DNA from: Deltaproteobacteria bacterium
GTDB lineage: Bacteria > Myxococcota_A > Polyangia > JAAYKL01
Direction of reading: 5' to 3'
DNA length: 64,000 nucleotides
Assembly (NCBI GenBank): GCA_016937015.1
Contig: JAFGWT010000543.1
Span: forward strand, 30,440 to 94,439
Shown piece after piece: positions 8,490 through 59,812 of this stretch. The position numbers and the translations under genes are program-made. The notes below the pieces were generated by a model. It worked only from the letters and a program-made list of their open reading frames with translations. It made no database searches and was not told where the DNA came from. Position 1 is the stretch's first letter, and every line of letters begins with the position of its first letter.

Positions 8490-8526
8490 GTCAATTTTTT
8501 CGGCGCCAGTCGAACGACAAAAAAAA

Positions 8527-8550: not shown

Positions 8551-8585
8551 AATTGGTGATGAGGTGTTTTTAAGGAGCCTTCTTA

Positions 8586-9878: not shown

Positions 9879-9932
9879 TCGAACTCTCCTTAGGCTGTTG
9901 GCACATCAGTGTGCCGCATTCCTAACACCTCA

Positions 9933-10610: not shown

Positions 10611-10689
10611 TGTCTATTTCCTCATCGGTGCAAAATGCGTTGTCGCAAATTGCGGTGCATGCCGGATATGATCCATGGCATGACGAGTC

Positions 10690-12374: not shown

Positions 12375-12814
12375 CGATGTGCCTCCCGTGTGGCGGTCAG
12401 ATCATCAATCTCAGACTGCTGTTTGAGACTCTGGTCCCTCTCCAATGCCTCTTTCCGATGTGTGTGCAGCGTTTCCATCTGTTTTACTCTTTTATGCGAT
12501 GCAAGCAGCTTTGCACGCCTGGCCTCGGTGTCGTGCTTTTTCTGTGCCAACTGATTCTCACTTTTTCGCAGGTCCGACTGCGCCCATTTGGCACTCTGTT
12601 CGGCAAGGGCGAGGTCTTCCGGCGTAATGCTCTTTCCCGTGATGTCACGAATCGCATTCAATTCGCCATCAAGCGCCTGCATGGCCATGTCGCGTTCGGA
12701 TTCGGCATGGGCTTCGTTTCGTCGTGCTTCGTCCATTTCTTTGGCGTCGATATCCCGCTGGCGTTCCCGGAACGCGATGAGCCTTTTGATTTTTCTAATG
12801 TTTTCGGCTGTCAT
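12371..12814 (-). CDS. fliJ: flagellar export chaperone FliJ
   Basis: 147-aa charged coiled-coil protein immediately downstream of fliI, 4-nt overlaps on both sides. Confidence 0.7.
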   Translation of the reverse strand: MTAENIRKIKRLIAFRERQRDIDAKEMDEARRNEAHAESERDMAMQALDGELNAIRDITGKSITPEDLALAEQSAKWAQSDLRKSENQLAQKKHDTEARRAKLLASHKRVKQMETLHTHRKEALERDQSLKQQSEIDDLTATREAHR

Positions 12815-14163
12815 GAGTTGCGCCTTTTGTTCTTCCGACTCCCCGCTTCAACCTGCCTTATCAGCGTCGCCAATTGCTGCGTGGATTCGTCGTAGCCGGA
12901 ACGGGTTGTCTGAGGCTGGGATACGTAGTTCATGAACAGGGGCATGAACTGTATGGCCTTGTCAACCGTGGCATCACTGCCCTGCTGGTATGCGCCAATT
13001 TTGATCAAATCTTCGGCCTGATAGTAGTCTGACAGCATGGCGCTGGCCTCTCTGGCAGCGGCCATATTTTCAGGGGAGGATAACTGGGTTATCAGTCGCG
13101 ATTTGCTGGAAAGTACATCCACCGCCGGATAAATACCCCGGTTTGCATAGTCCCTTGACAAAATGATGTGTCCATCCAGCAGGGCTCGCGTGCTGTCTGC
13201 CACTGGGTCCACCATATCGTCGCCTTCCACCAAAACCGTGTAAATGCCTGTAATGCTGCCATTTTTGCTGTTGCCAGCGCGCTCCAGAAGCCTGGCGAGC
13301 TCGACAAATACAGAAGGCGGATATCCTTTGGTAGCCGGTAATTCACCACCTGCGAGTCCCACTTCCCGCAACGCCATCGCATATCGGGTCAGTGAATCGA
13401 GCAGCAGTACCACCCGTCGTCCCTTATCCCGAAAATATTCGGCAATCGATGTAGCGTAGAGAGCGCCACGAACACGGGTTAGGGGGGCCTGATCCCCTGT
13501 TACCGCCACCACGCAGGTGCGGCTTCGGTTTTCGGCAGTGACGGCATCCTCTACGAACTCGCGGACTTCACGGCCGCGTTCTCCCACCAGTCCAATCACG
13601 CAAACATCGAATTCGCCATGCATGCTCAGCATTGAAAGCAGAGTGGTTTTGCCAACACCCGCACCCGCGTAAATCCCCACACGTTGCCCCTGGCCCAGCG
13701 TCAGCATCGAATCGAGAACCCGGACGCCTGTTTCGAGAATCCTGTCGATGCGGGTTCGGCTCATTGGACTTGGAGGCGTGCCTCGGAGGGATTGTCGGGC
13801 GTTCAGCGTCAATGGCTTGTCATCGAGGGCACGGCCATGGGCGTCCACAATCCGTCCCAGCAGTTCATCGCCCACCGGAACCAGAGTATCCGTATTGCGC
13901 AATGTGGCGGTGCATCCGGTGAAAATGCCTTCGAGCGAATCAAATGCCATGCATAGGACATGATCTTCATCAATTCCTATCGCTTCTGCTGCCAGCGGTC
14001 TGGACGCACCCGGTGGCCACAAATCCACCTGCTGGCCCACAGATGCCCGTAATCCGCGCACTTTCAGCACCGGACCCACAATGGAAATCACCTGTCCCTC
14101 CATCTTCAGCCGGGACAGTTCCTTCATATGCGCAATGAACTGCTGCTCCTGTGCGGCCAGCAT
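12811..14163 (-). CDS. fliI: flagellum-specific ATPase FliI
   Basis: Walker A GIYAGAGVGKTTLL, Walker B VVLLLDSLTRYA, F1-beta-like fold; flanked by fliH and fliJ. Confidence 0.95.
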   Translation of the reverse strand: MLAAQEQQFIAHMKELSRLKMEGQVISIVGPVLKVRGLRASVGQQVDLWPPGASRPLAAEAIGIDEDHVLCMAFDSLEGIFTGCTATLRNTDTLVPVGDELLGRIVDAHGRALDDKPLTLNARQSLRGTPPSPMSRTRIDRILETGVRVLDSMLTLGQGQRVGIYAGAGVGKTTLLSMLSMHGEFDVCVIGLVGERGREVREFVEDAVTAENRSRTCVVAVTGDQAPLTRVRGALYATSIAEYFRDKGRRVVLLLDSLTRYAMALREVGLAGGELPATKGYPPSVFVELARLLERAGNSKNGSITGIYTVLVEGDDMVDPVADSTRALLDGHIILSRDYANRGIYPAVDVLSSKSRLITQLSSPENMAAAREASAMLSDYYQAEDLIKIGAYQQGSDATVDKAIQFMPLFMNYVSQPQTTRSGYDESTQQLATLIRQVEAGSRKNKRRNS

Positions 14164-14828
14164 CAGATGTCTCCTCCCTGCTCAAGTGAAAACAAAGTTT
14201 TCAGCTTCGCCAGCCGCTGGAATACCTCTGCGTTAACCGTTTTCCTGCCTGCATTCACCACACACCCCATCGCGGACACCGACGGGTCCACCTTAACGGT
14301 CACATTCTCCATCTCCTCCAGGAGATTCAGTAATTCGTGCTCTTCAAATGCGGCGTGGATGTCCGGATGCAGTCGCACCACTGGGCGATCCGATTCATCA
14401 AACATTCCTAGAGATTCTTTAACAATTTCAATTGTTTTCTCCGGTTTTGCCTCAAGAGTGCCACAGGTCAGCTGTTCAGCGATGGCGAAGGCCAGTCTGA
14501 CACAGAATGAGAGATCCCGTTCTGTCATTTCCTTCCTGACCCGTGCCAGCTCGCTGATGGATGTGGCCAACAACTTCAGATTGTTTTCAACCCTCGGGTC
14601 CGGCTCGGGTTCGGGTGGCGGCGGCGGCGGTGGTTCCGGCTCGGGCGGTGGCGGTGGTTCCGATTTTGGCCTGCTGTGCATCTGCGGCCCCGGTTGCGGC
14701 GTTGCGAATGGTTGTCCAATAACAATATTTGAAATCGGCTCTTCTGCCGCAGCTTTCGCGGACGCACCAGACCAGTCCGGCGTTCCCACATCAAATCCAC
14801 CTTTGTTCTCCGGATCGAACCAGATCAT
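14163..14828 (-). CDS. fliH: flagellar assembly protein FliH
   Basis: position between fliG and fliI; coiled-coil then FliH_C-like segment; contains an EPEPPPPPPPEPEP low-complexity insert. Confidence 0.7.
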   Translation of the reverse strand: MIWFDPENKGGFDVGTPDWSGASAKAAAEEPISNIVIGQPFATPQPGPQMHSRPKSEPPPPPEPEPPPPPPPEPEPDPRVENNLKLLATSISELARVRKEMTERDLSFCVRLAFAIAEQLTCGTLEAKPEKTIEIVKESLGMFDESDRPVVRLHPDIHAAFEEHELLNLLEEMENVTVKVDPSVSAMGCVVNAGRKTVNAEVFQRLAKLKTLFSLEQGGDI

Positions 14829-15868
14829 ACAATTTCCTCTCCGCCACGTCCCGCGACCACGATGGCACCTTCTGATTCAAGCCGCAATGCCGTATCCACA
14901 ATCTCCTGCTGTGCCTTTTCCACCTCGGACAACTTGACCGGACCCATGGCCGCAAGGTCGTCCAAAAGTATCTCCGCGGCACGACTCGACACCGACGACA
15001 ATATTTTGTCCCGCAGGGTATCGCTTGCGGTCTTGAGTGCGAGTACCAGCTGATCGTTGCTGATTTCCTTGATGACCGCCTGCATGCCGCGGCCCTGAAC
15101 ACTTATAAGATCTTCGAATCCAAACATCGCTCGTCGCAGGCGCAGCACCATCCCCGGATCCTCATCCCCAATATTGGTGAGCAGATCCTCGGTTTCATCA
15201 ATGGATAGATTGGAAAGGATGCCAGCCACCCGTGCAATCCCATCCACCTGGATACTGTCTCCGGAATCCACTTCGGACAGCTGGTCTTCAACCGCCGTAA
15301 ACAGGGCGGTAACCGTCGAATTGGGAATCGATTCCAGGGTCGCCATTTTGGCCAGGATTTTGGCCTGGATTTCCCCATCCATCAGGCTCAGCACTTTGGC
15401 GGCGTACCCCGGGGATAGCTCCGCCAGAATGGCAGCAACCACCTGCGGGTTTTCAGGCTCAAGCACAGCAACCACTTCTTCAGGCGTTCTTTTTTCGATG
15501 GATGCATATGGTTTGTCGTGGTCGGTTTCCTTGAAAAGGGAGCGACTTCGGTCACTTCCAAGGGAACGCTGTGCCAGCCTTTCAATGTATGCAGTTCCGG
15601 CGCCTGCCGGTAGAACTGGGGTTCGCGCGTCGTTTAGAAAATCGCGATATGTTCTGGCAAGGGAGGTTGAATCGGTTTGATATTCCTTACCTGCCAGCGC
15701 GTGCAGCATTCGAATATCCTCGGGACTCATGTGGCGAAGCACTTTTGATACAGTGTCTTCTTCTAGAGACATTATCAGCAGCACGGCCTGCGTGGGCTTT
15801 GTCAATTCCACGTACTTTTTCTGCTCCGCGGGTGGATTGGCGGGCTGCTTAGCGATTTGCGTTGCCAT
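14825..15868 (-). CDS. fliG: flagellar motor switch protein FliG
   Basis: 347 aa; armadillo-like repeats, conserved charged C-terminal torque helix region (..ILLDDLAAMGPVKLSEVEKAQQEIV..). Confidence 0.9.
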   Translation of the reverse strand: MATQIAKQPANPPAEQKKYVELTKPTQAVLLIMSLEEDTVSKVLRHMSPEDIRMLHALAGKEYQTDSTSLARTYRDFLNDARTPVLPAGAGTAYIERLAQRSLGSDRSRSLFKETDHDKPYASIEKRTPEEVVAVLEPENPQVVAAILAELSPGYAAKVLSLMDGEIQAKILAKMATLESIPNSTVTALFTAVEDQLSEVDSGDSIQVDGIARVAGILSNLSIDETEDLLTNIGDEDPGMVLRLRRAMFGFEDLISVQGRGMQAVIKEISNDQLVLALKTASDTLRDKILSSVSSRAAEILLDDLAAMGPVKLSEVEKAQQEIVDTALRLESEGAIVVAGRGGEEIV

Positions 15869-17601
15869 CAGCTGTTCTCCCTCGCTGCCACGGGTTTTTC
15901 ATGAATCCATTTTTTAATGATGCGGGCAGCAGTTTCGCTGTCTTCTTCAAACACGTTTTTCACCTGCGCCATCATTTCGGTTGTGCGATTGGCGTATTCC
16001 TCGAATCCAGGCGGAGCGTTAAAAATTGACATGTCCGGAAGAGATGCCACAGATTGGGGGGACATCCCGTCGGTCTGGCCTGGCAACTGTCTGTTTTGTT
16101 CCTCGATCATTGATTCCAGCTCATGTACCGGTCTGGGGAAGGGAAGGGTGCCAGTACCGGGCTGCGCACCCAGAAAATGTGTTCCCATGGACGCCGTCGC
16201 GGGTTGGTGGCGTTTTCTGAATGTGGCCAGCGCCAAAAATGCAAACAGCACCACCAGAACGCCAACTGCGATGGGCAGGTACTGTTTCCACGGGAACGGC
16301 GCCTTAATCGCCTCGTCGTCCAGCGGTTCGGGCTGATGGAAGGAAATGGACTGAACAGAGATCTGATCCCCCCGATTCTTGCTGTACCCTATCGCGCCCT
16401 GAACGGCGGTTTCAATTTTTTTCAGCTCCTCTTTTGAGCGGGGGACAAACTTTTCGCCCTCTTTATTAACTCCATCAACCAGCACCGAAATGGTGATTCT
16501 TTCCAGTTCACTTCCGGTGCCAATCGTTTTTTTGACGATTTTATCGATTTCCCAGTTTTTGGTTTCCAGTTCCTTGCGCGTGTTGCTCTGCGCGTTATTG
16601 GATCCTGGCTGTTCCCCCCCCGGCAGATTGGACCGCGAACCGGGAATCCCCTCGCCACCACCGCTTTGCGTCCCAGCCACTTCCAGTTCCCTGCGCTCAC
16701 TGCGGACAGCTGTTTTGGCAGGGTCGTAATGTTCCTCCTGAACTTCGTTTTTACTGAAGTCAAATTCGGCCGCCACTCGGGTAATTGATTTGCCAGGCCC
16801 CACGAGCTGGTCGAGCATCTCCTGAACGCTCTGCTGGATGTTTTGCTCATAGCGGGTTTTAAACTCCATGCCCTCGCCACCGTTGCCCCCCACACCTGAC
16901 CTGGCGGACAAGAGCTTTCCGTGGGTGTCGACAATCGTTACCTGATCGGGGGAGAGTCCTTCCACACTCGATGATACAAGGTGAACAATGGCACTTACGG
17001 TCTCTTTGGGGAGTTCCCGTCCCCGGTGAAGCTCAAGAATCACGGAAGCCTGCGCAGGTGTTGACTCCTTGCCGAGCAGCGTGCGCTTGGGCAGAACCAG
17101 GTTGGCCTTTGCGTTTTTCACAACATTGATGCGGGCGATGGTACGTGACAATTCGCCTTCCAGTGCCCGTCTCATGGCAACGCGTTCTTCGAATTCGGTC
17201 ATCCCGAACTGTTGGTGATCAAACAGTTCGAAACCGACGCCGCCGCCGGTGGGCAGTCCTTCAGTGGCCAGTTCAAGACGCAGTTCGTGAAGACTTTCGT
17301 CGGGAACCAGAATTCGTGTGCCAGCCTCTTCAAGCCGGTAAGGAATTTTTTTGCCTTTCACAAATTCAATGATCGCCGAAGCGTCTTCGGGGGTCAGATT
17401 ATTGTAAAGCGTGCGATAACTGTTGTTTTCGACAGTCATCAGCATCGCGGTGGCGCCAAGAGTAAGAATCCCGATGATAATTACCGACGCTTTCAGCATC
17501 CTGGGCTGTTGTTGCCAGAATCCTTTGACCTGCAGCAGCTTTTCCCTGGCCACATCCTGGGGCTGCTTTTTAACGCCGTTAGTCTGATTATTGTTGTCCA
17601 T
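15868..17601 (-). CDS. fliF: flagellar M-ring protein FliF
   Basis: 577 aa, two TM segments flanking a large periplasmic domain, C-terminal FliG-binding tail; canonical fliE-fliF-fliG order. Confidence 0.9.
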   Translation of the reverse strand: MDNNNQTNGVKKQPQDVAREKLLQVKGFWQQQPRMLKASVIIIGILTLGATAMLMTVENNSYRTLYNNLTPEDASAIIEFVKGKKIPYRLEEAGTRILVPDESLHELRLELATEGLPTGGGVGFELFDHQQFGMTEFEERVAMRRALEGELSRTIARINVVKNAKANLVLPKRTLLGKESTPAQASVILELHRGRELPKETVSAIVHLVSSSVEGLSPDQVTIVDTHGKLLSARSGVGGNGGEGMEFKTRYEQNIQQSVQEMLDQLVGPGKSITRVAAEFDFSKNEVQEEHYDPAKTAVRSERRELEVAGTQSGGGEGIPGSRSNLPGGEQPGSNNAQSNTRKELETKNWEIDKIVKKTIGTGSELERITISVLVDGVNKEGEKFVPRSKEELKKIETAVQGAIGYSKNRGDQISVQSISFHQPEPLDDEAIKAPFPWKQYLPIAVGVLVVLFAFLALATFRKRHQPATASMGTHFLGAQPGTGTLPFPRPVHELESMIEEQNRQLPGQTDGMSPQSVASLPDMSIFNAPPGFEEYANRTTEMMAQVKNVFEEDSETAARIIKKWIHEKPVAARENS

Positions 17602-20603: not shown

Positions 20604-21779
20604 TCAGTCGAACCTAACGGTTACTTCAGCGTGACCGGAGCTATGATATCCCTCTACAACCAACGATACCTCGTAGAAAGATCCCATTTGCAGGCCATAC
20701 TGTCCCCATGCCTGAAAGTGGGGGGCGACAGTAATCGTGCCGCTGGTACGCTTGTCGGTGCGCACGCTCCAGAACTGTGGGAAAGTGGCGGTTCCTTCGA
20801 TGGACGGCTGGTTGATTCGGTCGCTTTTGTATACCTCATAAGTGCCACCATCCACCTGAATCGTACCCAGGGGGCTTGTCCCTGGTGGACGCCAGCTGCC
20901 CCAGCTATCCACGATGTAGTATTCAACCAACGGATTTTGCGTCCAGCCGTAAATCGCCAGATAGGAATTGCCGTTGGGCTGGTAATTCGCACTGTAGGTC
21001 ACCACAGGCTCGGCGGATCCGGGTCTGACGCCTTTTCGGGCCAGATAATTCCCCTGTGCCTCGGTCCAGTCTGCGACAAAGCCGACCGCGGTATTGGTCA
21101 TACAGGCGGAACCACTGTCCGTCCAGATTTCGTAGGTGAGTCCGCAATGCTTACCTGACTGTGCGCTCGCGCAAGCCTGCATATCCCCTTCGGTACATGC
21201 GGGGGGATCGGCGTCTGTATCCGTGTCCGTATCGGTATCAGTGTCCGTATCAGTGTCCGTATCAGTGTCTGTGTCCGTATCGGTATCGGTATCCGTATCA
21301 GTGTCCGTATCAGTGTCGGTGTCAGAATCCGTAGCGCCGGGTTCGCAACAGATTGGTGTCTCTGATGGACATGTGTAGTCGGGGAGATAAGTGCCATTCA
21401 TGTTTCGACATTCTCCCTGTCCAACACAAGTTCCCGGACAATTCGTATCGCCATCTGAATCAGTGTCCGTATCTGTATCGCTGTCCGAATCCGAGTCTGA
21501 ATCGGTATCTGTATCCGTGTCCGAGTCGGTGTCTGAATCTGAATCAGTGTCTGAATCTGAATCAGTATCCGAATCAGTGTCTGAATCAGTGTCTGAATCC
21601 GAATCAGAATCGCTGTCAGTGTCTGTGTCACTGTCGGTATCTGCATCTGAATCCGAATCGCTATCTGAGTCGGAATCTGAATCGCTGCTGCCTTCTCTTA
21701 AATTGTCTTCTCCGCCAGTACACGCCGCGAAGAGAGAGACGGCAGACAGTAAGATTAAAACCAGTGCATGCTTCGTCAT
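20604..21779 (-). CDS. GH11 endo-1,4-beta-xylanase with lipoprotein signal, two (Asp-Ser/Asp-Thr)n linkers and an 8-Cys mini-module
   Basis: C-terminal 190 aa align by eye to GH11 signatures ([22 protein letters not shown] ... [12 protein letters not shown] ... [21 protein letters not shown]; both catalytic Glu present); start set at Met with lipobox LFAAC. Confidence 0.9.
21201..21332 (-). repeat. (Asp-Thr)n coding repeat, xylanase linker 2
   Basis: GTATCNGTGTCN repeats visible on + strand. Confidence 0.9.
21444..21686 (-). repeat. (Asp-Ser/Asp-Thr)n coding repeat, xylanase linker 1
   Basis: ~80-residue SD/TD run encoded by GA(R)TC/GTGTC-type repeats. Confidence 0.9.
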
Positions 21780-22074
21780 TTGGCTTTCCCTTTCAAAAAA
21801 ATCATTAATAAACCTTTTTATTTGCACCCCAGTCTCAAGCAAACAAGGGGTAATACATCTTAAAAAACGGGAAAATTTCGCTCATTATCGTTAAACGCTG
21901 ATCGCTAAAGATAGTACCATGGCGTTGTGTAATCGGAGCACCTAATTGGTTATTTTGTGATTTTTTTTTGGCATATGAATATTTTTACTGGTCGCTATGA
22001 TCGAAAAAAATGCAAGATTGGTCGCATTATGATATTTTTTACTTTATTTTTCGACGCCTTGTCCCTCCCTTTGA

Positions 22075-35831: not shown

Positions 35832-36173
35832 ATGAAACTTGTAATCGCAATCATTCAACCAGAGCGGCTTTCCTACGTTAAAGAAGAACTGTTTAAGGCC
35901 GAAGTGCGCAAGATGACAGTCAGTCGAGTTAAAGGCTGCGGACAGCAGATGGGATACGAATCATCTTACCGCGGCAAAATTCATTCTGTTAATCTTCTGG
36001 ACAAAATACGAATTGGTATCGTGGTGAATGATGATTTTGAGCAGAAGACCATCGATGCAATTGTTGCGGGCGCGCGTACCGGAAACATTGGTGACGGAAA
36101 AATATTTGTACAGGAGCTGCACCGGTGCATCCGTATTCGAACTGGCGAAGAAGGTCACGATGCAGTTGGATAA
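35832..36173 (+). CDS. glnK: nitrogen regulatory protein P-II
   Basis: MKLVIAIIQPERL... 113 aa; T-loop RYRG-like segment (YRGKIHSVNLL); amt-glnK pairing. Confidence 0.9.
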   Translation: MKLVIAIIQPERLSYVKEELFKAEVRKMTVSRVKGCGQQMGYESSYRGKIHSVNLLDKIRIGIVVNDDFEQKTIDAIVAGARTGNIGDGKIFVQELHRCIRIRTGEEGHDAVG

Positions 36174-36222: not shown

Positions 36223-38946
36223 TTAGTTGCGTGTCATTTGCATCAGTGTTTTTTGGTTTCTTTTTATCGTTTTTGCTTTGGCACTTGAAACGTTATCTTT
36301 CATTTGCAAAAAGCGTTCGTACGATGCGAGAGCGTCTGAAGCATATTGATGGCGCAGTTTTTTAGATTTCTCTATTTTGGTCAGATTGTATTCTGTGCGA
36401 CCTTTTACAAACCATGTGTTTGGCGGAATTCGGCCTGATCGTCTGATAATCTCGTTAAAGTGTGCGAGAGAGGATTTCAACACATCATATTGCTGTTCGC
36501 GAGTCAGTTTTGTTTTTCCGTCCCTTCCTGAGTCCCCCTTCTGATACAGGTCCATTCCATTGTCGTAGAGTTGTTCAATATTCATCTCGGCGATAGGTTC
36601 GATGTTATAGAGAGATATTGATTCTGATGGCTTCGCAACTGGTGCATTTTCTGCTTCTTCTGGCGCCGACGGTTTGGCAATGACAGCTGATTCCATTGAT
36701 GTGGATTCCTGTGGGTTGACGGAAGATACCGCCGCAGTCGTTACATCACTCTGGTCAGCTGAGGCCTTTGTCAATGTTGAATCCGCAGACAGGGGAGGCG
36801 TTACCTCTGCGTTGGTGTTGCCAGTTCGTTTTATCTCTTTATCCTGTTTTGGCGACGCTGCTGCCGAATCTCCCCATGTTGGCAGCCTGTTCAGAACAGG
36901 AAGGCTGTCCTTCGAAATGGGTGACCATGGTGACAGGAGGATGGCCACAGTGCTGCACAATAGCAGCACAACACCAACAATAACCCCTGCAATCAGTTTT
37001 CTACTACCAGTTGAGCCGATTGGATAAAATGAGATATTGGATTCCTCGGGAATGTCCTCATCCACCACGGATTCCTGTAATTTTGACAGGTCGATTTGCT
37101 GAATCTCATCATCCCCATTAAACACTGCGTGTGACCCGATATCCGCATCTGTTTCCACTTGTCTGCTTTGCTGTGCAGCCAATGCACCAATGTTTTCGTG
37201 GGTGGTGGTCAATGTTGCTTCTTCATCCTGAGTGTCGGGCGTCTGATATACCGCGGGGGCGGGCAGGGTGCCGGTGGCGGGCTGCAGCTTAATCACGGGG
37301 GGCGTGCCGATTTTTGTCTGGCTTGGCGGTCTGTTTGGTTTGTTCGTTCGAGCTGATGTGCCTGCGATGGCCCCGGGAATAGTGGAAAACATTTCGTCAA
37401 TTTCTTCGGGATTCAGTTGTTGCAGCTCGTTTACATCCACTTCGTCGGTATCGTTACCGACCATTGCAGTGGCTTTGTTGACCATCGCAGATTTCCATTT
37501 TTCGGCTTCCAGTTTCAAGTCGTTTATTTCCGCCCGCAGGCCAGATAGTCCTTTCCCCATTAATTTACCAATGCGCATCTCCATATCGGTAAGTTCAACC
37601 TGCAACTCCGCGTGAATTCGTTCTTCAATTTTAGGCAGTTCCTCCGAAACCCATTTCTCCATGGTTTTGGAAATCTCACCTGTCGCGAGCGCCAGTACGT
37701 CTCCCCTTGTACCAGCCAGGCGCTTTTGAATGTCCGTCCGGATTCGAGACTCCAACTCATCCATCTGATCCGGCAGCTGATCCATAACTTTCTGTACAAT
37801 TGACTGCATTTCCGATTCGATAATCGATCGGCGGTGCGATCGTCGCGGCTCAAACGGATCAGCCGGTGCAATCGACGCAAAACTGTCTGCCGCCATACTG
37901 GTGCGCGATTTGAGTTTCGGGGAACTGTTTCGTTTTTTTGGACGCAACCTCGCAGAGCTTGGTCTGTGGGGCAATATGGAATCCATGGCCCCTTCTGAAA
38001 GAGGCCCCTGGGTCTGTTCTTTGTGATTGTTTTCAGGCATCATGGAGATTGTGCCACTTTCGTCGTTGTCGAGGTTTGCGAGATTTACGAGAGAAAACAT
38101 CCCGTTCGACATAATATTGTCATTTTGACGTGTCCCCTGCCAGCCTGGCGAAAAAACCACCACACACCCATGTGTTTTTCCAAATTCTCTGAGCGCTTCA
38201 GCAATTCGTTGTGCCTGTTCCCGTGGGTCACCTTCGCCCATCCAGTGTTTCAGCTGATTCAGTGGAAAACTGGAGAGCGCTGCTTCCCTCGAAAAGAAGA
38301 CAAGCTGCTCGTTTTTTTTCATTGGTACAGTATTGGTTTGTATCTGCGGAATGAAATCACCTAAATCGCCAATCTTGCTGAACAGTCCACCGGCAATGTG
38401 ATCCTGCGTCAGCTTTTGAACCCTGGCGCCCACCAGATATTGCTGCGATTCGCCTCTATGGGAAATGTGAATTCCTCCATCGTAGTAGACAACCGCTTCC
38501 AGACTGTTGGTAATCCTGCTTATTAGACTGTTTTTCGCAGGTGCTTTTACATTGTTGGCCGCCTCCATTTTGTACGCGACCATCTCATCCTGCCCGTGGG
38601 TTACAGTATCCACCAGCATCTGATCAAGACCAGAGACTGTCTGTCCAAGCAGATTGCGAAACGCCGGATCGGAAGCGTCGACGTTGTCTGCCTTGCCGGC
38701 ACTGTTTTTTAAATAGTTGGAGATGTATTCCGCGATCAATGCGGTCGCAGTATTGCCCAGCTCATCAAGGATGGCAGTGTCAACACCGCTGCCTCGAAGT
38801 CGAATAGTATGGGCTTCCGCCATAACGATGGCGCCGTTTTCGGGATTTACAGTCAAATGGACTGTGCCGGATTTTTCAGGATCCAGAAATGCGACCCCAA
38901 CAGCACCGTTGGAGAACATGTTTTCGTCAACCGTCATGTCATCCAA
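36223..38946 (-). CDS. 907-aa single-TM protein: N-terminal PP2C-like (degenerate) domain, coiled coil, TM, C-terminal helical domain
   Basis: N-terminal 270 aa have PP2C-like layout but metal-binding DGxGG replaced (ILDELGNTAT); Pro/Ser-rich linker, coiled coil, TM helix LIAGVIVGVVLLLCSTVAILL; function unknown. Confidence 0.45.
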   Translation of the reverse strand: MDDMTVDENMFSNGAVGVAFLDPEKSGTVHLTVNPENGAIVMAEAHTIRLRGSGVDTAILDELGNTATALIAEYISNYLKNSAGKADNVDASDPAFRNLLGQTVSGLDQMLVDTVTHGQDEMVAYKMEAANNVKAPAKNSLISRITNSLEAVVYYDGGIHISHRGESQQYLVGARVQKLTQDHIAGGLFSKIGDLGDFIPQIQTNTVPMKKNEQLVFFSREAALSSFPLNQLKHWMGEGDPREQAQRIAEALREFGKTHGCVVVFSPGWQGTRQNDNIMSNGMFSLVNLANLDNDESGTISMMPENNHKEQTQGPLSEGAMDSILPHRPSSARLRPKKRNSSPKLKSRTSMAADSFASIAPADPFEPRRSHRRSIIESEMQSIVQKVMDQLPDQMDELESRIRTDIQKRLAGTRGDVLALATGEISKTMEKWVSEELPKIEERIHAELQVELTDMEMRIGKLMGKGLSGLRAEINDLKLEAEKWKSAMVNKATAMVGNDTDEVDVNELQQLNPEEIDEMFSTIPGAIAGTSARTNKPNRPPSQTKIGTPPVIKLQPATGTLPAPAVYQTPDTQDEEATLTTTHENIGALAAQQSRQVETDADIGSHAVFNGDDEIQQIDLSKLQESVVDEDIPEESNISFYPIGSTGSRKLIAGVIVGVVLLLCSTVAILLSPWSPISKDSLPVLNRLPTWGDSAAASPKQDKEIKRTGNTNAEVTPPLSADSTLTKASADQSDVTTAAVSSVNPQESTSMESAVIAKPSAPEEAENAPVAKPSESISLYNIEPIAEMNIEQLYDNGMDLYQKGDSGRDGKTKLTREQQYDVLKSSLAHFNEIIRRSGRIPPNTWFVKGRTEYNLTKIEKSKKLRHQYASDALASYERFLQMKDNVSSAKAKTIKRNQKTLMQMTRN

Positions 38947-39014: not shown

Positions 39015-41603
39015 TCAAAGTGCGTGATAATTTTGAGTTGTCGGTTCCCTGGAAGGAATCAATCCTGGGTTCTCAATCAGATGGCACATAACGAAACTGT
39101 CTGTCTGAATCGTTTTGAATAGTGCCATGCGATTCAGCGCATCAGGTATTGGGGTGTACATCTGCAATTTAGTGACAGTGCCGGTTCTGAACGATTCATA
39201 TCGAATTTGTGTATCCGACACGCCGCGTCGGCGCAGTGCATCAACCAATGGCCTGTACAGTGTTGGTGGGCCACAAATGAAATATGTTTTTCTGTCGAGG
39301 TTGTCAGGGAACAGCTCCAATACACCGCGGACTGATACACGACCGGTTCTGCCTTTCCAGAAACGGGAAGGACGAGAAAGGATGTGTGTTAGTCTGATGT
39401 TTGGATTTCTATTAACGACCTCGTTAATTTCGTCTTTGAATATTAAATCGGCCTCATGTCTGGCGCCGTACACCAGGTGAACCCGAGGTGCTTCGCGACT
39501 GCCGTCAAATTCCCGGAGCATGCTCATTATGGGAGTGATACCGCTACCTACCGCAATGGCCACAATGTCCTTTGTATCGCGTTCGGGAACATACACAAAA
39601 TCACCGAACGGTCCTGTTACAGAAAGCCTGTCTCCCACGCGCACATCGTTTACCAGCCAGCGGGACATGTTGCCGCCGGGCTGTGCTTTGACCGTGATAT
39701 CCAAATATTTGCCGTTTTCCGGCGCAGACGAAATACTGTACGCCCTTGTGACTCGTTGGCCACGGATATCCGCTGTGACATCCATATATTGACCTGCCCT
39801 GAAGTGCATGAACCGTTCTTTTTCCGGAAACAGACGCAAAGTCACCGTATCTGCCGTTTCAACTTTTCGAGATGTCACTTTCACCAGAATGTTGGCCGCG
39901 TGAAATCGCGCTGATTTATCGTAAGTACTGATGAAGGGTTCTTCCAGCGAGGAATTGTCGTACTTTCTGTACTTGCTTCGAATCACTTTTCCCACCCGTT
40001 TGCCGTCCCGAAACATCAGTTTCCAGCCATTAAGGCGCCGTTGCAGCGTTTGGTCGCGCACCGTCTGGCTCGCGCCGATGCCATAGGGGAGTTCATTCAC
40101 TTCTCCCCATTGCTCAAGAATGCACATAGCCGTGTTGTATCCGGATGTAATCACGCCCTGGTAGCCAGCGCTCGGGCGCGTCCATGCGCCTGCAAACCAA
40201 AGACCTTCCAGAGGCCCTTTGTTGTCCATTCGGAACCCCGGATTTTCCTCTGGCGTATTCGCGAAGCCATATATGGCGCCCTGCGGGTTTCCGGTATACC
40301 TGACATTGCTGACCGGCGTCGATACTATTTGAGTTTCAATTGCATCCCTTATCGCGGGGAACCGCTCGGCGACAATCTTTAGCAGCATTTTGCCGTAGCG
40401 CTCCTTTTCGATTGCATACTCCGCATCATTCAGGCTTGTCCACACCTCTCCCTGCTGAAGAATTGTAATCGCCAGCACGCCTTTTCCTTTCCGAGCAAAC
40501 GATGGGTTGGCGATGTCATATGCACACACCGAAACAACACCGGGAGAGCATAACTGGCCACAGCTTTCCCATTGCTTGTTCATATCTGTCTCCAGGTTGA
40601 TGTACAACTCGTGGTTGTGGATTCCCAACTCCCGGGTTGGTCGGTTCAGTCCAAGATAAAGCGTCACTGTTCCCGCACTGGGGGCGGCTGCCTCAAGACG
40701 GCGGATATGTTTGGGTTGAATGTGTTGCCTGTCAATGAGCCGTGTCAGTGTGCTGTATGGATCCGCGTTGGATATGACCGTATCTGTGAAGAAGGTATCG
40801 CCTTTGTCGCTTACAACCCCACAAACCCGACCATTTTCAACCAGAATCTGCTGAATTCCTTCTGACAGATGCACTTCGCCTCCATTTTCGCGAATTACAT
40901 CGGCATAAGCATTTGATAGTGACTGACTTTTTCCTTCAATTGTTACCGCTCCCCAGGTCAGGTAGCTGCTGACGCCGGCCGCAAACAGTAAGAACGACAG
41001 TTTGTCAGGGGGCAATCCGAAGTATCCCCAAAGCTGACCGAGAACCAGTTTCAGATTATCATTGGATATGTACCGGTTCATAACGTCCGATACAGTGGTT
41101 CCGGCTGCGTGCGCAAGGTTGGGAAATCGAGCCAGTGTTGGTAACGGGCTGGTCCCATATCCGCCTTCGCGAATGAGCTGAACTTCTTTGCCGACCGTAA
41201 CGATCTGCTGGATAAACGAATGAATCCCCGCTGCTTCGTCTGGAAATGCACTGATCAACACCGATTCGGCGTTGGCCGGAGAACGCGGGATGGTGATGTC
41301 CACACCATCTGCCATTGTGCGATACAGGTCCGGCAAAGGAATGAAGTTAACTTTGTCCAGTATGCCCAATGCGTCATAAAAAGTCCTGAGCGGTCCAGGA
41401 TTATCGGGTGTGCCAACACCGCTCATGGCATGAAGAGAAACTTCAAACTCAAAACCGTCTCTGAAAAAAGTTGTTGCGTATCCGCCCGGCTGACTGTGCC
41501 GTTCAAATACCGCCACTTTATGTCTATTTTTTGCAAGCGTTGCCGCGACGGTTAATCCCCCAAGGCCACTGCCCACAATGATTGCTTTAAACTGATTTCT
41601 CAT
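39015..41603 (-). CDS. fusion flavoenzyme: CrtI/phytoene-desaturase-like FAD oxidoreductase + C-terminal FNR-like (FAD/NAD(P)-binding) reductase domain
   Basis: N-terminal dinucleotide-binding GSGLGGL..VFERHSQPGG; C-terminal RAYSISS (RxYS FAD motif) and GSGITP (NAD(P) motif) of ferredoxin-reductase-type domains. Confidence 0.7.
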   Translation of the reverse strand: MRNQFKAIIVGSGLGGLTVAATLAKNRHKVAVFERHSQPGGYATTFFRDGFEFEVSLHAMSGVGTPDNPGPLRTFYDALGILDKVNFIPLPDLYRTMADGVDITIPRSPANAESVLISAFPDEAAGIHSFIQQIVTVGKEVQLIREGGYGTSPLPTLARFPNLAHAAGTTVSDVMNRYISNDNLKLVLGQLWGYFGLPPDKLSFLLFAAGVSSYLTWGAVTIEGKSQSLSNAYADVIRENGGEVHLSEGIQQILVENGRVCGVVSDKGDTFFTDTVISNADPYSTLTRLIDRQHIQPKHIRRLEAAAPSAGTVTLYLGLNRPTRELGIHNHELYINLETDMNKQWESCGQLCSPGVVSVCAYDIANPSFARKGKGVLAITILQQGEVWTSLNDAEYAIEKERYGKMLLKIVAERFPAIRDAIETQIVSTPVSNVRYTGNPQGAIYGFANTPEENPGFRMDNKGPLEGLWFAGAWTRPSAGYQGVITSGYNTAMCILEQWGEVNELPYGIGASQTVRDQTLQRRLNGWKLMFRDGKRVGKVIRSKYRKYDNSSLEEPFISTYDKSARFHAANILVKVTSRKVETADTVTLRLFPEKERFMHFRAGQYMDVTADIRGQRVTRAYSISSAPENGKYLDITVKAQPGGNMSRWLVNDVRVGDRLSVTGPFGDFVYVPERDTKDIVAIAVGSGITPIMSMLREFDGSREAPRVHLVYGARHEADLIFKDEINEVVNRNPNIRLTHILSRPSRFWKGRTGRVSVRGVLELFPDNLDRKTYFICGPPTLYRPLVDALRRRGVSDTQIRYESFRTGTVTKLQMYTPIPDALNRMALFKTIQTDSFVMCHLIENPGLIPSREPTTQNYHAL

Positions 41604-41634
41604 CGTCTTCCTCCGCTGGGATTGCCACGTTTTG

Positions 41635-42237
41635 CTATGCGTTGTTGCGAATGTTTTTCAGAATGTCGTATGCGTTGCTCACGAACCCTCGCGAGAAGAG
41701 GGACGGTGGAACACTGCCACCCAGATCCAGATGATTTATGTAGGTTATCCTGGTTCGCTTTCCGCCGTCTATGGGGGTCAGCGTCCAGCTGCCCTGAACA
41801 TTGCGCACAGGAATACCTTTGGGATTTACTGGTTTTCGCTCATTGGTTTTAGTCCAGCGCCGAACATATTGCGGATACCCATCCACATCAGTTACCTGCC
41901 AGTTCACTTTAACTACATAATGTCTGTCTTTAATCATCCAGTTGCCCAGCCGCACATACACGTAATCACAGCCGTTACCGCAGCTGTCAATGGTATTATG
42001 TTCTTTCAGTCCATCGATTTTTATGGTTTCAGTTACGTATTCCCACACCCTTGGGGTGGGCGCATTAATTGTAGTCACCGCTTTTACTTCCGGCACTTCA
42101 CTTTTGGGGTGATTCGTAGTGAATACACTGATTCCCTCCTCTTTGCCATGTCTCTCCCATTTACCCTTTGCATTGACATCCGAGACCAGTACCAGTGCTG
42201 CCGTGGCAAGGCTGACTGTTACAACTGAATTAATCAT
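41635..42237 (-). CDS. secreted START/SRPBCC-domain lipid-binding protein
   Basis: signal peptide; ~170-aa domain with START-like pattern (VWEYVTE...KE..TIDSCGNG...YVVKVNW...GSWTLTPIDGGK.RITY); weakly supported. Confidence 0.5.
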   Translation of the reverse strand: MINSVVTVSLATAALVLVSDVNAKGKWERHGKEEGISVFTTNHPKSEVPEVKAVTTINAPTPRVWEYVTETIKIDGLKEHNTIDSCGNGCDYVYVRLGNWMIKDRHYVVKVNWQVTDVDGYPQYVRRWTKTNERKPVNPKGIPVRNVQGSWTLTPIDGGKRTRITYINHLDLGGSVPPSLFSRGFVSNAYDILKNIRNNA

Positions 42238-42457
42238 GACTATCCTCCGTTAATGCGCGTTTTCTTCAGCTATTGTAATGAGTGATGAGTGATGATGCGC
42301 AATTTTGAATAATTTAAATCTCTTCAAAAATTAGTCAACGATTTTGCGCCAGATTTTATCTAAGTGTTTATTATTGCGTTATTAATTGTTTTGGGAGTTA
42401 TTGGGCAAAATGTTTTTGACGGATTTTTGAATAGATAATTTCGCAAGGAAGGCTTAG

Positions 42458-43036
42458 CTAAGCGGCCTGTTCAAGCTCGCTACGGGAGCCAAGTCGGGTG
42501 CGGAGGGCGTTGCGACCCCGGTGGAGACGAGACATGACAGTGCCAACCGGACATGTCAGTTCACCAGCGGCCTCCGCATATGACAGGCCGTTCACATCGC
42601 ACAGCATAACCACCTGACGATATTCCGGTTTCAGCTCATCCATGGCTGCCGTGACGGTGTCGCCAAAACCGTCATCATTATACACATTGCCATCCTGGTG
42701 TGTGGTACGTCGTCCCATCTCGCCAATCGACCATGTTCTGAGCGCATAGCTGCCTTCTTCTTCCATGGTTTTCTCTTCAAGTCTGATTCGTCTGACAATG
42801 GAGATGTACCGATTTTTCATTATGCGGGCGAGCCATGCTCTGATGTTGGTACCTTCCTGATAGCTGGTGCGAAATTTGAGTGCCAATAGCATCGTGTCCT
42901 GAAGAAGATCTTCGGCACGGGATACATCGTGGGTCAGCGACACTGCGAGTTTCAACAGATTGCCGCGGTGGTCTTCAAGCTGGTTTTCAAAACTAATAAT
43001 GTCATTGAAATTTCTGGCGATATTTTTCATGGTCAT
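42458..43036 (-). CDS. ECF-type RNA polymerase sigma factor
   Basis: region 2 (LLQDTMLLALKFRTSY..NIRAWLARIMKNRYIS) and region 4 (SYAEAAGELTCPVGTVMSRLHRGRNAL) motifs; no obvious anti-sigma adjacent. Confidence 0.85.
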   Translation of the reverse strand: MTMKNIARNFNDIISFENQLEDHRGNLLKLAVSLTHDVSRAEDLLQDTMLLALKFRTSYQEGTNIRAWLARIMKNRYISIVRRIRLEEKTMEEEGSYALRTWSIGEMGRRTTHQDGNVYNDDGFGDTVTAAMDELKPEYRQVVMLCDVNGLSYAEAAGELTCPVGTVMSRLHRGRNALRTRLGSRSELEQAA

Positions 43037-43237
43037 TCCTCTTTCCCGTTGCTAAGTGGTTGTTGATAGAGCTATTGAGCAAAGACAATGCCAGGATTGT
43101 CCCAATTGGCGGATTTTGGAAAAAATTAATTAATTCGTAGGTTTAAGAGGATGGCTGTGTTGGATTGAACATCAGTGATGCCGAGATTGCAGGAGGAATT
43201 GTCTTTTTTTAAGCGATTTTATATGCAATTAGTAGAT

Positions 43238-58243: not shown

Positions 58244-59593
<1,350 letters not shown>

Positions 59594-59812
59594 AATTACT
59601 CCTCGTTTTTTTGAGTTCAAACACCTTGTCAATTATCGGTATAGTTTAGTCATAATCCAGCTTGTGCAAAGTGAATAATCGGTTTTTAAAAATATACATT
59701 TTAAAAATACTGAAATTGCAATTTTAATATAATTTTTTGCTTGCGGTCATGATTCCAGAAGTGAGCGGAAAATTCGGAGGTACCCATTAAATGGACCACG
59801 TATCGGCCGTTT

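Follow-up and report, generated by a model that had tools for sequence, protein, structure and literature searches.

CrtISO and RetSat, of the CrtI/CrtD family, require their flavin in reduced form or some reductant, the physiological source of which is unsettled, and we know of none with a fused or dedicated reductase. The COG1233 flavoenzyme CtmAB of Castellaniella defragrans acts on an isoprenoid with a co-encoded ferredoxin and pyridine-nucleotide reductase: within ctmABCDEFG, CtmE is a 2Fe-2S ferredoxin and CtmF an NADH:ferredoxin oxidoreductase, and ctmE transposon mutants do not grow on limonene (PMC4109377). CtmAB with CtmE is thus a known case of a COG1233 enzyme relying on both a 2Fe-2S ferredoxin and a reductase. 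Both CtmAB and its relative, the Delta24-steroid desaturase (Delta24-SD) of Sterolibacterium denitrificans, act oxidatively at allylic positions, by hydroxylation or desaturation (PMC4109377, PMC11061730). In CYP116B P450s and self-sufficient reductive dehalogenases a catalytic domain, an NAD(P)H-flavin reductase and a plant-type 2Fe-2S domain are fused, so that one polypeptide holds the whole electron chain (PMC7260179, PMC10463259).

The stretch analysed here (64 kb; the window) encodes an 862-aa protein that is a genuine natural fusion of a CrtI-type and an FNR-type flavin domain (Table 1). Like CtmAB it is a COG1233 flavoenzyme, and by motif comparison the covalent-flavin site of CtmAB and Delta24-SD resembles its N-terminal His motif (PMC11061730). 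The two known enzymes differ from it in having two COG1233 subunits and separate partner proteins and in catalysing oxidations, whereas the fusion has one catalytic domain, a covalently joined reductase of FNR type rather than Pyr_redox_2 type, and no Fe-S centre. The CYP116B-type layout, with its phthalate-dioxygenase-reductase/PaaE-like module, matches the Fer2-bearing relatives of the fusion (P0006-P0028); in the window clade, by contrast, the 2Fe-2S domain has been dropped and a flavin-flavin pair left, and the catalytic domain is itself a flavoprotein with an amine-oxidase/CrtI fold. PaaE, BenC and MmoC have FAD_binding_6 and NAD_binding_1 in the same order as the fusion and a C-terminal Fer2 as in its relatives, but the fusion itself has no Fer2 and carries in addition a helical N-terminal extension that the split reductases share.

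Table 1. Features of the locus, in window coordinates.
Feature	Position	Strand	Basis
ECF-type sigma factor gene, 192 aa	42458..43036	(-)	Sigma70_r2, Sigma70_r4_2 and TIGR02937 matches
SRPBCC (START-like, Polyketide_cyc2) gene, 200 aa	41635..42237	(-)	Pfam; predicted signal peptide, residues 1-23
Fusion flavoenzyme gene, 862 aa	39015..41603	(-)	ORF and Pfam domains
Large membrane-protein gene	36223-38946 by first TTG (907 aa); 36223..38937 by ATG (904 aa)	(-)	
Fusion residues 1-500, COG1233/CrtI-like flavin domain	40104..41603	(-)	Motifs, Pfam, fold matches
Fusion residues 501-572, junction and basic helical segment RLNGWKLMFRDGKRVGKVIRSKYRKY	39888..40103	(-)	Alignment to split reductase, model helices
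Fusion residues 573-805, FNR-type reductase (FAD_binding_6 + NAD_binding_1)	39189..39887	(-)	Motifs, Pfam, PDB matches
Fusion residues 806-862 and stop codon, disordered tail in place of the lost 2Fe-2S ferredoxin domain	39015..39188	(-)	pLDDT, Pfam, alignment A1
Sigma-54-type -24/-12 element TGGCATTGTCTTTGCT, upstream of ECF sigma gene	43078..43093	(-)	Consensus match
19-nt invariant block ATCAACAACCACTTAGCAA, sigma-gene leader	43049..43067	(-)	Identical in window, L002 and L003
Promoter-like block TTGACT-N16-TAAATT, upstream of SRPBCC gene	42307..42338	(-)	Promoter scan and conservation in four genomes
Terminator-like hairpin then T-run, ~100 nt past the stop of the 904-aa gene	36108..36122	(-)	Pattern match; such matches here are no commoner than chance expectation

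The minus-strand ORFs, their domains and the motifs RAYSISS (residues 620-626) and GSGITP (686-691) lie where the original prediction placed them (Pfam, translation). On the 862-aa protein, Pfam cut-offs are passed by Amino_oxidase at residues 14-496 (65 bits against 19.8), FAD_binding_6 at 575-671 (63.6 against 21.1) and NAD_binding_1 at 683-783 (65.6 against 22). The FNR part also contains ICGPP, and the CrtI-like domain has GSGLGGL (11-17), an invariant FEFEVSLHA with His58, and a C-terminal FAD motif at 467-488. RxYS, GSGITP, CGPP and both N-domain FAD motifs are intact and conserved in P0001-P0005, at 58-68% identity. An AF2 model built with 28 homologues as input (pLDDT 84, pTM 0.83) has two domains, with helices at 519-543 inside the junction segment. 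The best PDB matches of its N-terminal half are CrtD 4rep (TM 0.85), 3ka7 and CrtI 4dgk, with 5mog also found, a fold in common with CrtISO and RetSat; those of the C-terminal half are cytochrome b5 reductase, NqrF, flavohaemoglobin and GcoB. Despite the likeness in fold, the protein scores far under the family cut-offs (crtI_fam, 131 against 238; CrtD, 127 against 550; CrtISO, 124 against 587) and has no carotenoid or retinoid context. Residues 574-808 find their best NCBIfam and PDB sequence matches among PaaE/BenC/MmoC-type reductases, the PaaE model scoring 136 against an equivalog cut-off of 421. The last 57 residues (806-862) have pLDDT <35, are poorly conserved, lack a Cys4 motif and have no Pfam match.

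NCBI MAGs, JGI metagenomes, and ENA and Logan assemblies all contain homologues that match over the full length at 33-68% identity, and because these independent assemblies show the same architecture, the suspicion of an assembly artefact can be dismissed. Since the fusion is genuine, a self-sufficient NAD(P)H-linked flavoenzyme, as first proposed, is its natural reading; domain scores and model agree with it. To our knowledge, no member of this fusion subfamily has been characterised.

The fusion had been called unusual. It is better described as uncommon yet recurrent, and the architecture is already annotated automatically in several databases; the pairing of CrtI-like and FNR proteins is itself widespread and unstudied. 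In a set of 173 homologue loci, whose counts are not de-duplicated, a separate, adjacent, same-strand FNR+Fer2 gene directly follows the CrtI-like gene in 45, while nine loci are fused with Fer2 and eight without. The two genes overlap or nearly abut in split examples such as L090 and L091, and the alignment of the stand-alone reductase from L090 with the fusion starts at its residue 2, opposite fusion residue 523 (38% identity over 285 residues). Fusion segment 501-572 corresponds to the N-terminal extension of the split-system reductase subunit, and the fusion unites in one chain what is elsewhere a conserved module of two genes, a Rosetta-stone pattern. Other electron-transfer domains were joined independently to the same catalytic domain: FNR-Fer2 in reversed order, N-terminal of it, in P0140; cytochrome c3 in P0151; and Pyr_redox_2 with a BFD-type 2Fe-2S domain in P0153, where, in a likeness to CtmAB, exactly this module stands in one chain. 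In some relatives the fused domain is a 4HBT thioesterase.

An NJ tree nests the window clade in a fused, Fer2-bearing clade, with P0006 as its sister, and places the fusions in P0018, P0019, P0020-28 and P0051 as separate events; fusion arose several times, once with reversed domain order. In alignment A1, a CxxxxCxxC...C Fer2 domain occupies the C-terminal position in 21 of 28 homologues and is missing from P0001-P0005, a pattern which indicates that the window clade lost its 2Fe-2S domain. L154 is an independent Fer2-less fusion.

The gene preceding the enzyme encodes a 200-aa protein which passes Polyketide_cyc2 (29.9 bits against 27.4) and fails START proper (16.8 against 22), and which therefore belongs to the SRPBCC superfamily without being strictly a START protein, as had been suggested. 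The signal peptide that had been proposed for it stands: the N-terminus reads as a Sec signal, a hydrophobic run followed by VNA|K, and is kept in orthologues. Only 9 clusters of this protein were found among 5.8 billion proteins, five of them on the contigs of P0001, P0002, P0004, P0005 and P0006, and a local profile search located a sixth copy adjoining P0016 in L008. A copy lies beside the enzyme in six fusion loci, both with and without Fer2, and the gene stays by the enzyme down to 41-49% identity and occurs almost nowhere else. The linkage is real, and the SRPBCC protein is a conserved partner of the fusion enzyme. About 70 nt before its start codon is a 32-nt block with a fully conserved spacer, which occurs once in the window. 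It is conserved across four genomes, one of which, L003, has its sigma gene at a non-adjacent place, and its match to consensus suggests that it is the gene's own sigma-70-like promoter.

The upstream gene encodes an ECF sigma factor without an obvious anti-sigma, as originally stated: it matches Sigma70_r2 and Sigma70_r4_2 (Pfam) and TIGR02937 (62.1 bits against 42.9), and no anti-sigma ORF is present in the 220-bp gap downstream. That it leads the gene string did not hold up. In three genomes (window, L002 and L173) the sigma gene is directly upstream of the SRPBCC/fusion unit and in the same orientation, but in L003/L004 YebC and a divergent GGDEF gene lie between the two, and no sigma gene accompanies the P0006 and P0016 homologues; the gene is a neighbour with loose linkage and does not belong to the conserved unit. 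Upstream of it, TGGCAT-N5-TTGCT is the sole match to the sigma-54-type element in the 64-kb window, where 0.09 would be expected by chance, and the equivalent positions read TGGCATTTCATTTGCT in L002 and TGGCACTCCGCTTGCT in L003. From the consensus, this element may be the sigma gene's own promoter. The 19-nt leader block also occurs once in the window.

Orthologue alignment places the real start of the large downstream gene at the ATG of position 38937, so that its product has 904 aa rather than the 907 reported. The protein combines conserved domains at its N-terminus (~300 aa) and C-terminus (~120 aa) with coiled and low-complexity regions and a single TM helix (~residues 651-672, window 36931-36996). 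Its gene was found only beside P0001, P0002, P0004 and P0005, and is clade-specific. Its description as a membrane protein stands, while the degenerate PP2C-like domain assigned to it was not confirmed: there is no Pfam match even at E<=10 and no PDB profile match, hhalign against PstP aligned only a GDSR-like stretch at 1.7% probability, and Smith-Waterman scoring relative to shuffled sequences yielded z values of 2.0, -0.45, 0.45 and 1.4. A single-sequence AF2 model was unusable (pLDDT 36).

With slightly better than even confidence, we favour a unit of SRPBCC protein and two-flavin enzyme, the latter a fused two-component system with a reductive or isomerising action on a hydrophobic lipid. 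The conserved functional unit is the gene pair for an exported SRPBCC lipid-binding protein and a cytoplasmic enzyme, which in the window clade is followed by the gene for the 904-aa single-pass membrane protein; the three genes probably share one transcript from the conserved sigma-70-like promoter at 42338-42311. Most likely the enzyme uses NAD(P)H to drive the reduction or isomerisation of a hydrophobic lipid or isoprenoid. We infer that NAD(P)H reduces the FAD of the FNR module, which passes the electrons on to the flavin of the CrtI-like domain, and since the 2Fe-2S domain was lost in this clade, the last transfer, flavin to flavin, would be direct. The reduced flavin would then saturate a C=C bond, or isomerise it without net redox change, in an isoprenoid or unsaturated lipid, and the SRPBCC protein would carry substrate or product on the periplasmic side. 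The automatic JGI names of relatives, prolycopene isomerase and retinol 13,14-reductase, count for this reading, as both reactions require reduced flavin or a reductant. A membrane-lipid role is hinted at by L091, whose reductase is fused to an LPG_synthase_TM domain and adjoins an Omp85 gene, and by a CDP-alcohol phosphatidyltransferase gene near P0009. Counting against it, direct transfer without 2Fe-2S is assumed, and the characterised COG1233 enzymes with a known or suspected ferredoxin need (CtmAB, Delta24-SD) are all oxidative. In addition, with the enzyme cytoplasmic and its partner exported, a direct hand-off would need a membrane step.

It is possible, but in our view rather unlikely, that the enzyme is instead an allylic dehydrogenase or hydroxylase of the CtmAB/Delta24-SD type, whose CrtI-like domain oxidises an isoprenoid or allylic C-H and whose FNR module serves only for reductive flavin activation or as an exit for electrons. 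The potential of NAD(P)+ is too low for it to take up the electrons released by C-C desaturation or allylic hydroxylation. CtmAB nevertheless genetically needs a 2Fe-2S ferredoxin and clusters with a reductase (PMC4109377), Delta24-SD cycles between semiquinone and hydroquinone with a natural acceptor that is unknown, which suits one-electron carriers, and F-E-F-E-V-S-L-H58-A resembles the covalent-flavin site G-F-L/R-x-N/S-T/L-H-A of both enzymes at 5/7 specified positions (PMC11061730). Against these likenesses, the known enzymes are heterodimers where the fusion has a single catalytic domain, and the catabolic acyl-CoA clusters around distant relatives, which would fit an oxidative role, have no counterpart beside the window clade. 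The same clusters could place the enzyme in the catabolism of an unsaturated or isoprenoid acid that has been activated with CoA, with the SRPBCC and membrane proteins as incidental neighbours: among 35 clustered fused or split loci, conserved neighbours include acyl-CoA ligase (17/35), enoyl-CoA hydratase (17/35), acyl-CoA dehydrogenase (9/35), NMO (8/35), thiolase (7/35) and a ChsH2/DUF35-type OB-fold protein (4/35), and the 4HBT fusions point the same way. The lack of such genes near the window gene and its closest relatives (P0002, P0004, P0005, P0006 and P0016), together with the persistent SRPBCC linkage, makes this improbable.

We give as little credence to the original model of an ECF-sigma-led operon, a stress-induced regulon modifying carotenoids or isoprenoid lipids. 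In its favour are the three adjacent sigma genes, the CrtI/CrtD-like fold and the P0009 locus, where a gene two places downstream of the homologue encodes a different ECF-type sigma with fused CMD and DGC domains. Apart from its variable linkage, however, the sigma gene has a putative sigma-54-type promoter of its own and no anti-sigma partner, the sigma-70-like block of the SRPBCC gene is kept in all four genomes, and visual inspection of the conserved upstream blocks revealed no ECF promoter motif of the GAAC/CGT type. Nor do carotenoids fit: the enzyme fails the carotenoid-family cut-offs, no crt or squalene genes are present among the scanned window ORFs, and the contexts of relatives are beta-oxidation-like or membrane-related. 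That 2Fe-2S loss broke the electron chain and left a decaying relic which no longer works as an oxidoreductase is very improbable; the disordered tail would be expected of it, but the full frame of 855-872 aa is retained, at 58-68% identity, in five clusters (90% identity) that stem from different samples, the cofactor motifs are all invariant, SRPBCC synteny is retained, and L154 dispensed with Fer2 independently.

The original observation is partly confirmed and its interpretation partly supported: the fusion here is tied to an exported lipid-binding protein, not to carotenoid genes or to the neighbouring sigma factor. As distant relatives lie in acyl-CoA catabolic clusters, the function of the family may not be uniform. 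On the reductive or isomerising reading that we prefer, the enzyme would be the fused version of a widespread uncharacterised two-component system, in which a COG1233 (CrtI/CrtISO/RetSat/CtmAB-type) flavoprotein is served by a dedicated PaaE/BenC-type reductase (FNR plus plant-type 2Fe-2S), and its fused NAD(P)H reductase would supply exactly the reductant that CrtISO/RetSat-type chemistry needs.

The four minus-strand ORFs of the string lie where the original prediction had placed them (see table), and the 862-aa fusion of a CrtI-like and an FNR-like flavoenzyme that it had claimed is borne out: three Pfam models passed their cut-offs and the RAYSISS and GSGITP motifs are present. By its profile match, its GxGxxG fold and its C-terminal FAD motif, the N-terminal half is an amine-oxidase/CrtI-fold flavoprotein (PF01593, COG1233), with an additional NAD_binding_8 match (56.6). 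The C-terminal half has both domains of an FNR-like reductase together with the RxYS, GxGxxP and CGPP motifs. An AlphaFold2 model built from 28 homologues (pLDDT 84, pTM 0.83) is confident for both folds except in the C-terminal tail. Foldseek matched the N-terminal half to CrtD (4rep, TM 0.85), 3ka7 and CrtI (4dgk), and the C-terminal half to cytochrome b5 reductase, NqrF, flavohaemoglobin and GcoB reductases. Neither Pfam nor the alignment revealed a plant-type 2Fe-2S (Fer2) domain or a CxxxxCxxC motif in the tail, and the protein is therefore not of the three-module PaaE type. The invariant motif F-E-F-E-V-S-L-H58-A is found throughout the window family, and H58 is kept in 28 homologues.

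Features of the window (coordinates of the whole stretch), of the fusion enzyme (residues) and of three loci holding homologues (positions within each locus)
Feature	Position	Strand	Remarks
Flagellar block	8586-17601	-	FlgE, FliI ATPase, FliG, FliF
GH11 xylanase gene	20604-21842	-	N-terminal extension of ~230 aa without family match
904-aa protein gene	36223-38937	-	ATG at 38937; predicted as ORF 36223-38946
Fusion enzyme gene	39015-41603	-	862 aa
SRPBCC protein gene	41635-42237	-	200 aa
Sigma-SRPBCC gap	42238-42457	-	CTATTCAAAA motif twice
ECF sigma gene	42458-43036	-	192 aa
Invariant leader block	43049-43067	-	ATCAACAACCACTTAGCAA, 19 nt
TGGCA(T/C)-N5-TTGCT element	43078-43093	-	upstream of sigma gene
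C2-domain protein gene	58244-59632	-	462 aa
FAD motif, N-terminal	residues 11-17		GSGLGGL
Amino_oxidase (PF01593)	residues 14-496		65 bits vs cut-off 19.8
H58 motif	residues 53-59		F53-E-V-S-L-H58-A59
FAD motif, C-terminal	residues 467-483		GLWFAGAWTRPSAGYQG
FAD_binding_6 (PF00970)	residues 575-671		63.6 vs cut-off 21.1
RAYS	residues 620-623		in RAYSISS
NAD_binding_1 (PF00175)	residues 683-783		65.6 vs cut-off 22
GSGITP	residues 686-691
ICGPP	residues 776-780
C-terminal tail	residues 806-862		disordered in AlphaFold2 model
L090, Rieske fusion gene	5397-6986		Rieske + Pyr_redox_2 + Reductase_C
L091, reductase fusion gene	6824-9154		FNR-Fer2 + LPG_synthase_TM
L006, 577-aa protein gene	13251-14984		ECF sigma + CMD + DGC

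An assembly artefact, which the original prediction had asked to be checked, is excluded as the source of the fusion because the same architecture recurs in independent assemblies. An identical 862-aa protein is present in an NCBI MAG labelled Deltaproteobacteria, and relatives with the same 855–872 aa layout and 58–68% identity occur in other MAGs, some of which bear Zodletone isolate names, in one JGI metagenome and in Logan assemblies. About 20 further 90%-identity clusters (880–923 aa, 33–49% identity) bear a C-terminal Fer2 domain (CxxxxCxxC...C). Among the homologue clusters, Fer2 is found in P0006–P0028 and is lacking in P0001–P0005, the window clade. An exhaustive HMMER search of 1.84 billion representatives of 50%-identity clusters returned 1183 relatives at E<=1e-30; about 20 of the best 150 are fusion-sized, at least ~800 aa, with domains confirmed for four of them. 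Matches listed in a metagenome scan were mostly 28–38% identical, and so they added split and fused counts and no new close relatives.

To place the fusion among its relatives, we assembled a set of 173 loci encoding homologues of the CrtI-like domain (for the metagenome part, among the matches listed; not de-duplicated), called their ORFs and searched these with N-domain, FNR and Fer2 profiles. A separate same-strand FNR+Fer2 gene directly adjoins the CrtI-like gene in 45 loci. Both parts are fused with Fer2 in 9 loci and without it in 8; the CrtI-like gene stands alone in 106, many of them short contigs, and the remaining 5 are split without Fer2 or have the reductase further off. The module was found in Dehalococcoidia, Desulfobacterales, Syntrophomonas, Nocardia, marine hydrocarbon degraders and Asgard archaea.

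How the two forms relate can be read from locus L090, where the CrtI-like and reductase genes overlap by 4 bp. Residue 2 of its stand-alone reductase aligns to window residue 523, with 38% identity over 285 residues, which indicates that the basic helical 'linker' of the fusion is the counterpart of the extension at the reductase subunit's N-terminus; the fusion reads as two neighbouring genes read through. In a neighbour-joining tree of the N-domains, fused Fer2-bearing sequences enclose the window clade, whose sister is P0006, implying that Fer2 was lost secondarily. Independent fusions in the same tree are P0018, P0019, P0020–28 and P0051. Other clusters have FNR-Fer2 at the N-terminus, in reversed order (P0140), a Pyr_redox_2 reductase with a BFD-type 2Fe-2S domain (P0153), a class III cytochrome c (P0151), 4HBT thioesterases (P0223, P0272) or an ABC1/UbiB-like kinase (P0237). 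Because NAD(P)H-linked one-electron modules have been recruited repeatedly and independently, there is strong comparative evidence that the CrtI-like catalytic flavoprotein would need an external electron chain.

Two split loci carry additional fusions. Directly upstream of the gene pair in L090 is a Rieske-containing fusion gene whose product would be a second redox partner within the same operon-like string. L091 holds a close split relative (P0030, 48% identity); the FNR-Fer2 reductase there carries an added membrane domain, LPG_synthase_TM (MprF-type flippase-like), and an Omp85 gene comes after it, a hint of a membrane-lipid role.

Neighbouring genes from 35 fused or split loci were grouped into clusters, and representatives were compared with Pfam. 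In a distant branch comprising Dehalococcoidia, Promethearchaeota and other archaea, Desulfobacterales, Syntrophomonas, Halopseudomonas and Robiginitomaculum, the neighbours are acyl-CoA ligase and enoyl-CoA hydratase (17/35 loci each), acyl-CoA dehydrogenase (9/35), NMO (8/35), thiolase (7/35) and a ChsH2/DUF35-type OB-fold protein (4/35). This context, as in the gene map of locus L009, is beta-oxidation-like. None of these neighbours occurs in the window clade loci, where the constant partner is the 200-aa protein encoded upstream of the enzyme.

The partner had been described as a secreted START protein. It passes the Pfam Polyketide_cyc2 cut-off (29.9 vs 27.4) and falls short of START proper (PF01852, 16.8 vs 22), and it is therefore a member of the SRPBCC superfamily; the secretion part of the description stands, as its N-terminus reads as a signal peptide ending VNA|K that is kept in orthologues. 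Among 5.8 billion proteins it has 9 clusters, 5 of which lie on contigs of P0001, P0002, P0004, P0005 and P0006. In the window, 31 bp separate the SRPBCC and fusion genes, with a GGAGGA ribosome-binding site before the enzyme's ATG. The linkage extends to Fer2-bearing relatives: the SRPBCC gene is 28 bp upstream on the same strand at the P0006 locus (49% identity), and a 226-aa homologue is divergently upstream in L008 (P0016, 41% identity). Downstream, the trio is followed on the opposite strand in three relatives (L003/L004/L005/L173) by genes for AbpE_bact, an NIL+Fer4 protein and HcyBio (homocysteine biosynthesis); an ammonium transporter gene occupies the equivalent position in the window.

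The 192-aa protein is the ECF sigma factor that had been predicted, with regions 2 and 4 (Sigma70_r2 42.6, Sigma70_r4_2 61.2) and a TIGR02937 score above the cut-off (62.1 vs 42.9). Its proposed leadership of the string is not supported. The sigma gene is directly upstream of the pair in the window, L002 and L173, is separated from it by YebC and a divergent GGDEF gene in L003/L004, and does not occur next to P0006 or P0016. Ahead of the SRPBCC gene, a 32-nt block, TTGACT-N16-TAAATT, aligns across four genomes, spacer included and even in L003. At the level of consensus matches, the SRPBCC/fusion pair is therefore most likely to have a promoter of its own, and the sigma gene would be a loosely linked neighbour under separate control. 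Terminator and promoter scans gave overall match counts at chance level, and only sites conserved across genomes were retained. The CTATTCAAAA motif, kept in four genomes, occurs ~100 nt upstream of the SRPBCC gene and again overlapping the -10; it is a candidate binding site for a regulator.

The sigma gene is preceded in three genomes by a shared TGGCA(T/C)-N5-TTGCT sequence, which by consensus would be a textbook sigma-54 -24/-12 element. The window holds no second match (chance expectation 0.09), and an invariant leader block follows the element. An anti-sigma gene in the sigma–SRPBCC gap was considered and rejected, since no ORF of at least 25 aa there shows any conservation and the next gene encodes the exported SRPBCC protein; this agrees with the original remark that there was no obvious anti-sigma. 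An ECF sigma under RpoN control without an anti-sigma partner is an unusual arrangement. Near the P0009 homologue in L006, a 577-aa protein joins an ECF sigma to CMD (carboxymuconolactone decarboxylase-like) and DGC parts, which make up a sensor-like extension at its C-terminus.

The membrane protein downstream of the enzyme retains its predicted status, with one TM helix, but from its real start it has 904 aa and not 907. It follows the enzyme only in P0001, P0002, P0004 and P0005. It gave no Pfam match at E<=10 and none in a PDB profile search. The degenerate PP2C-like domain ascribed to it could not be confirmed: the N-terminal domain contains HRGESQxYLV...KLTxDH, resembling the PP2C GDSR motif with its Asp replaced (GDSR to GESQ), and hhalign against the verified PstP aligned 33 columns (HRGESQxYLV vs HIGDSRGYLL) at a probability of 1.7%, a local likeness that was not significant in a shuffle test. 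A homologue search with the N-terminal 300 aa returned no match, itself included; with orthologues known from four fetched loci, the family is either extremely narrow or missed by the word index.

The suggestion of a carotenoid regulon is not supported. The fusion enzyme scores far under the curated NCBIfam cut-offs for crtI_fam (TIGR02734, 131 vs 238.1), CrtD (TIGR02733, 127 vs 549.7) and CrtISO (TIGR02730, 123.6 vs 586.9), and no crtE, crtB, crtY or other carotenoid or squalene gene was found among the larger window ORFs scanned or in the relatives' loci. Among the products of these larger window ORFs are flagellar proteins, a GH11 xylanase, a succinate dehydrogenase/fumarate reductase flavoprotein, a sulfatase and a 2-oxoacid:ferredoxin oxidoreductase. 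The last of these named, with the Zodletone origin of the closest relatives, is compatible with an anaerobe and is not proof of one. One window protein has a C2 domain (PF00168, E = 1e-13), which is mostly eukaryotic. Overall, the observation behind the original prediction was largely right; of its interpretation, the self-sufficient flavoenzyme stands, while ECF leadership and carotenoids were wrong or at least unsupported.

Our full-text search for published work on a CrtI-like/FNR fusion or gene pair found none, and returned the papers on limonene dehydrogenase (CtmAB) and Delta24-steroid desaturase (Delta24-SD) alone. Among COG1233 enzymes, limonene dehydrogenase alone has been described as having a ferredoxin and a reductase dedicated to it: ctmA, ctmB and the 2Fe-2S ferredoxin gene ctmE are needed for growth on limonene, and ctmF is the reductase gene (PMC4109377). 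Delta24-SD cycles between semiquinone and hydroquinone with an unknown acceptor, and in both enzymes the flavin is covalently bound at the His of G-F-L/R-x-N/S-T/L-H-A (PMC11061730). The main rival to a reductive role is a CtmAB-like oxidative enzyme that is reductively activated. The potential of NAD(P)+ is too low for it to be the acceptor of CtmAB or Delta24-SD, so the redox chain there probably serves activation. The H58 motif of the window protein is a partial sequence match to their covalent-flavin motif. In the wider family, 45 split and 9 fused loci have Fer2 along with the reductase; the window protein has kept the reductase and lacks the ferredoxin. CtmAB and Delta24-SD are oxidative heterodimers of two COG1233 subunits, whereas the window enzyme has one COG1233 domain and its locus encodes no second paralogue.

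CrtISO and RetSat share the CrtI fold and depend on a reductant or on reduced flavin; many relatives carry JGI names taken from these two enzymes. The domain arrangement of the Fer2-bearing relatives is like that of self-sufficient CYP116B P450s and of self-sufficient reductive dehalogenases (PMC7260179, PMC10463259). Architecture, split/fused pattern and SRPBCC linkage were observed; for the mechanism, we propose that NAD(P)H would supply electrons to the FAD of the FNR part and that, in the window clade, these would move directly on to the CrtI-like flavin with no Fe-S step. The CrtI-like flavin would then bring about the reduction or isomerisation of a C=C bond; the substrate would be a hydrophobic lipid or isoprenoid, to be handled on the periplasmic side by the exported SRPBCC protein.

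The system described here is an uncharacterised, widely distributed COG1233-reductase system; the form encoded in the window is derived, fused and Fe-S-less, and it has an exported SRPBCC partner that is private to it. A much broader reading is conceivable, though we consider it rather unlikely as a whole: that CrtISO/RetSat-like COG1233 flavoproteins with an NAD(P)H-FNR-[2Fe-2S] reductase form a large unrecognised prokaryotic class (bacteria and Asgard archaea) of lipid/isoprenoid double-bond saturases or isomerases, and that the flavin-to-flavin form of the window clade, with its dedicated periplasmic SRPBCC carrier, remodels or salvages envelope lipids in anoxic sulfidic habitats. We know of no settled physiological electron donor for CrtISO, RetSat or the anaerobic allylic oxidases CtmAB and Delta24-SD. 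If true, the COG1233-reductase class would show the kind of donor that CrtISO/RetSat-like enzymes use. A conserved gene pair, fused repeatedly and independently, ties the CrtI fold to an NAD(P)H-FNR-2Fe-2S chain and so offers a testable answer, and the single-polypeptide fusions should be easily assayed. The window version, Fe-S-less and with its own exported lipid-binding partner, is a compact variant suited to work on mechanism and substrate. Because the module usually adjoins acyl-CoA genes, it may represent a step, so far unrecognised, by which unsaturated or isoprenoid lipids are turned over both anaerobically and aerobically.
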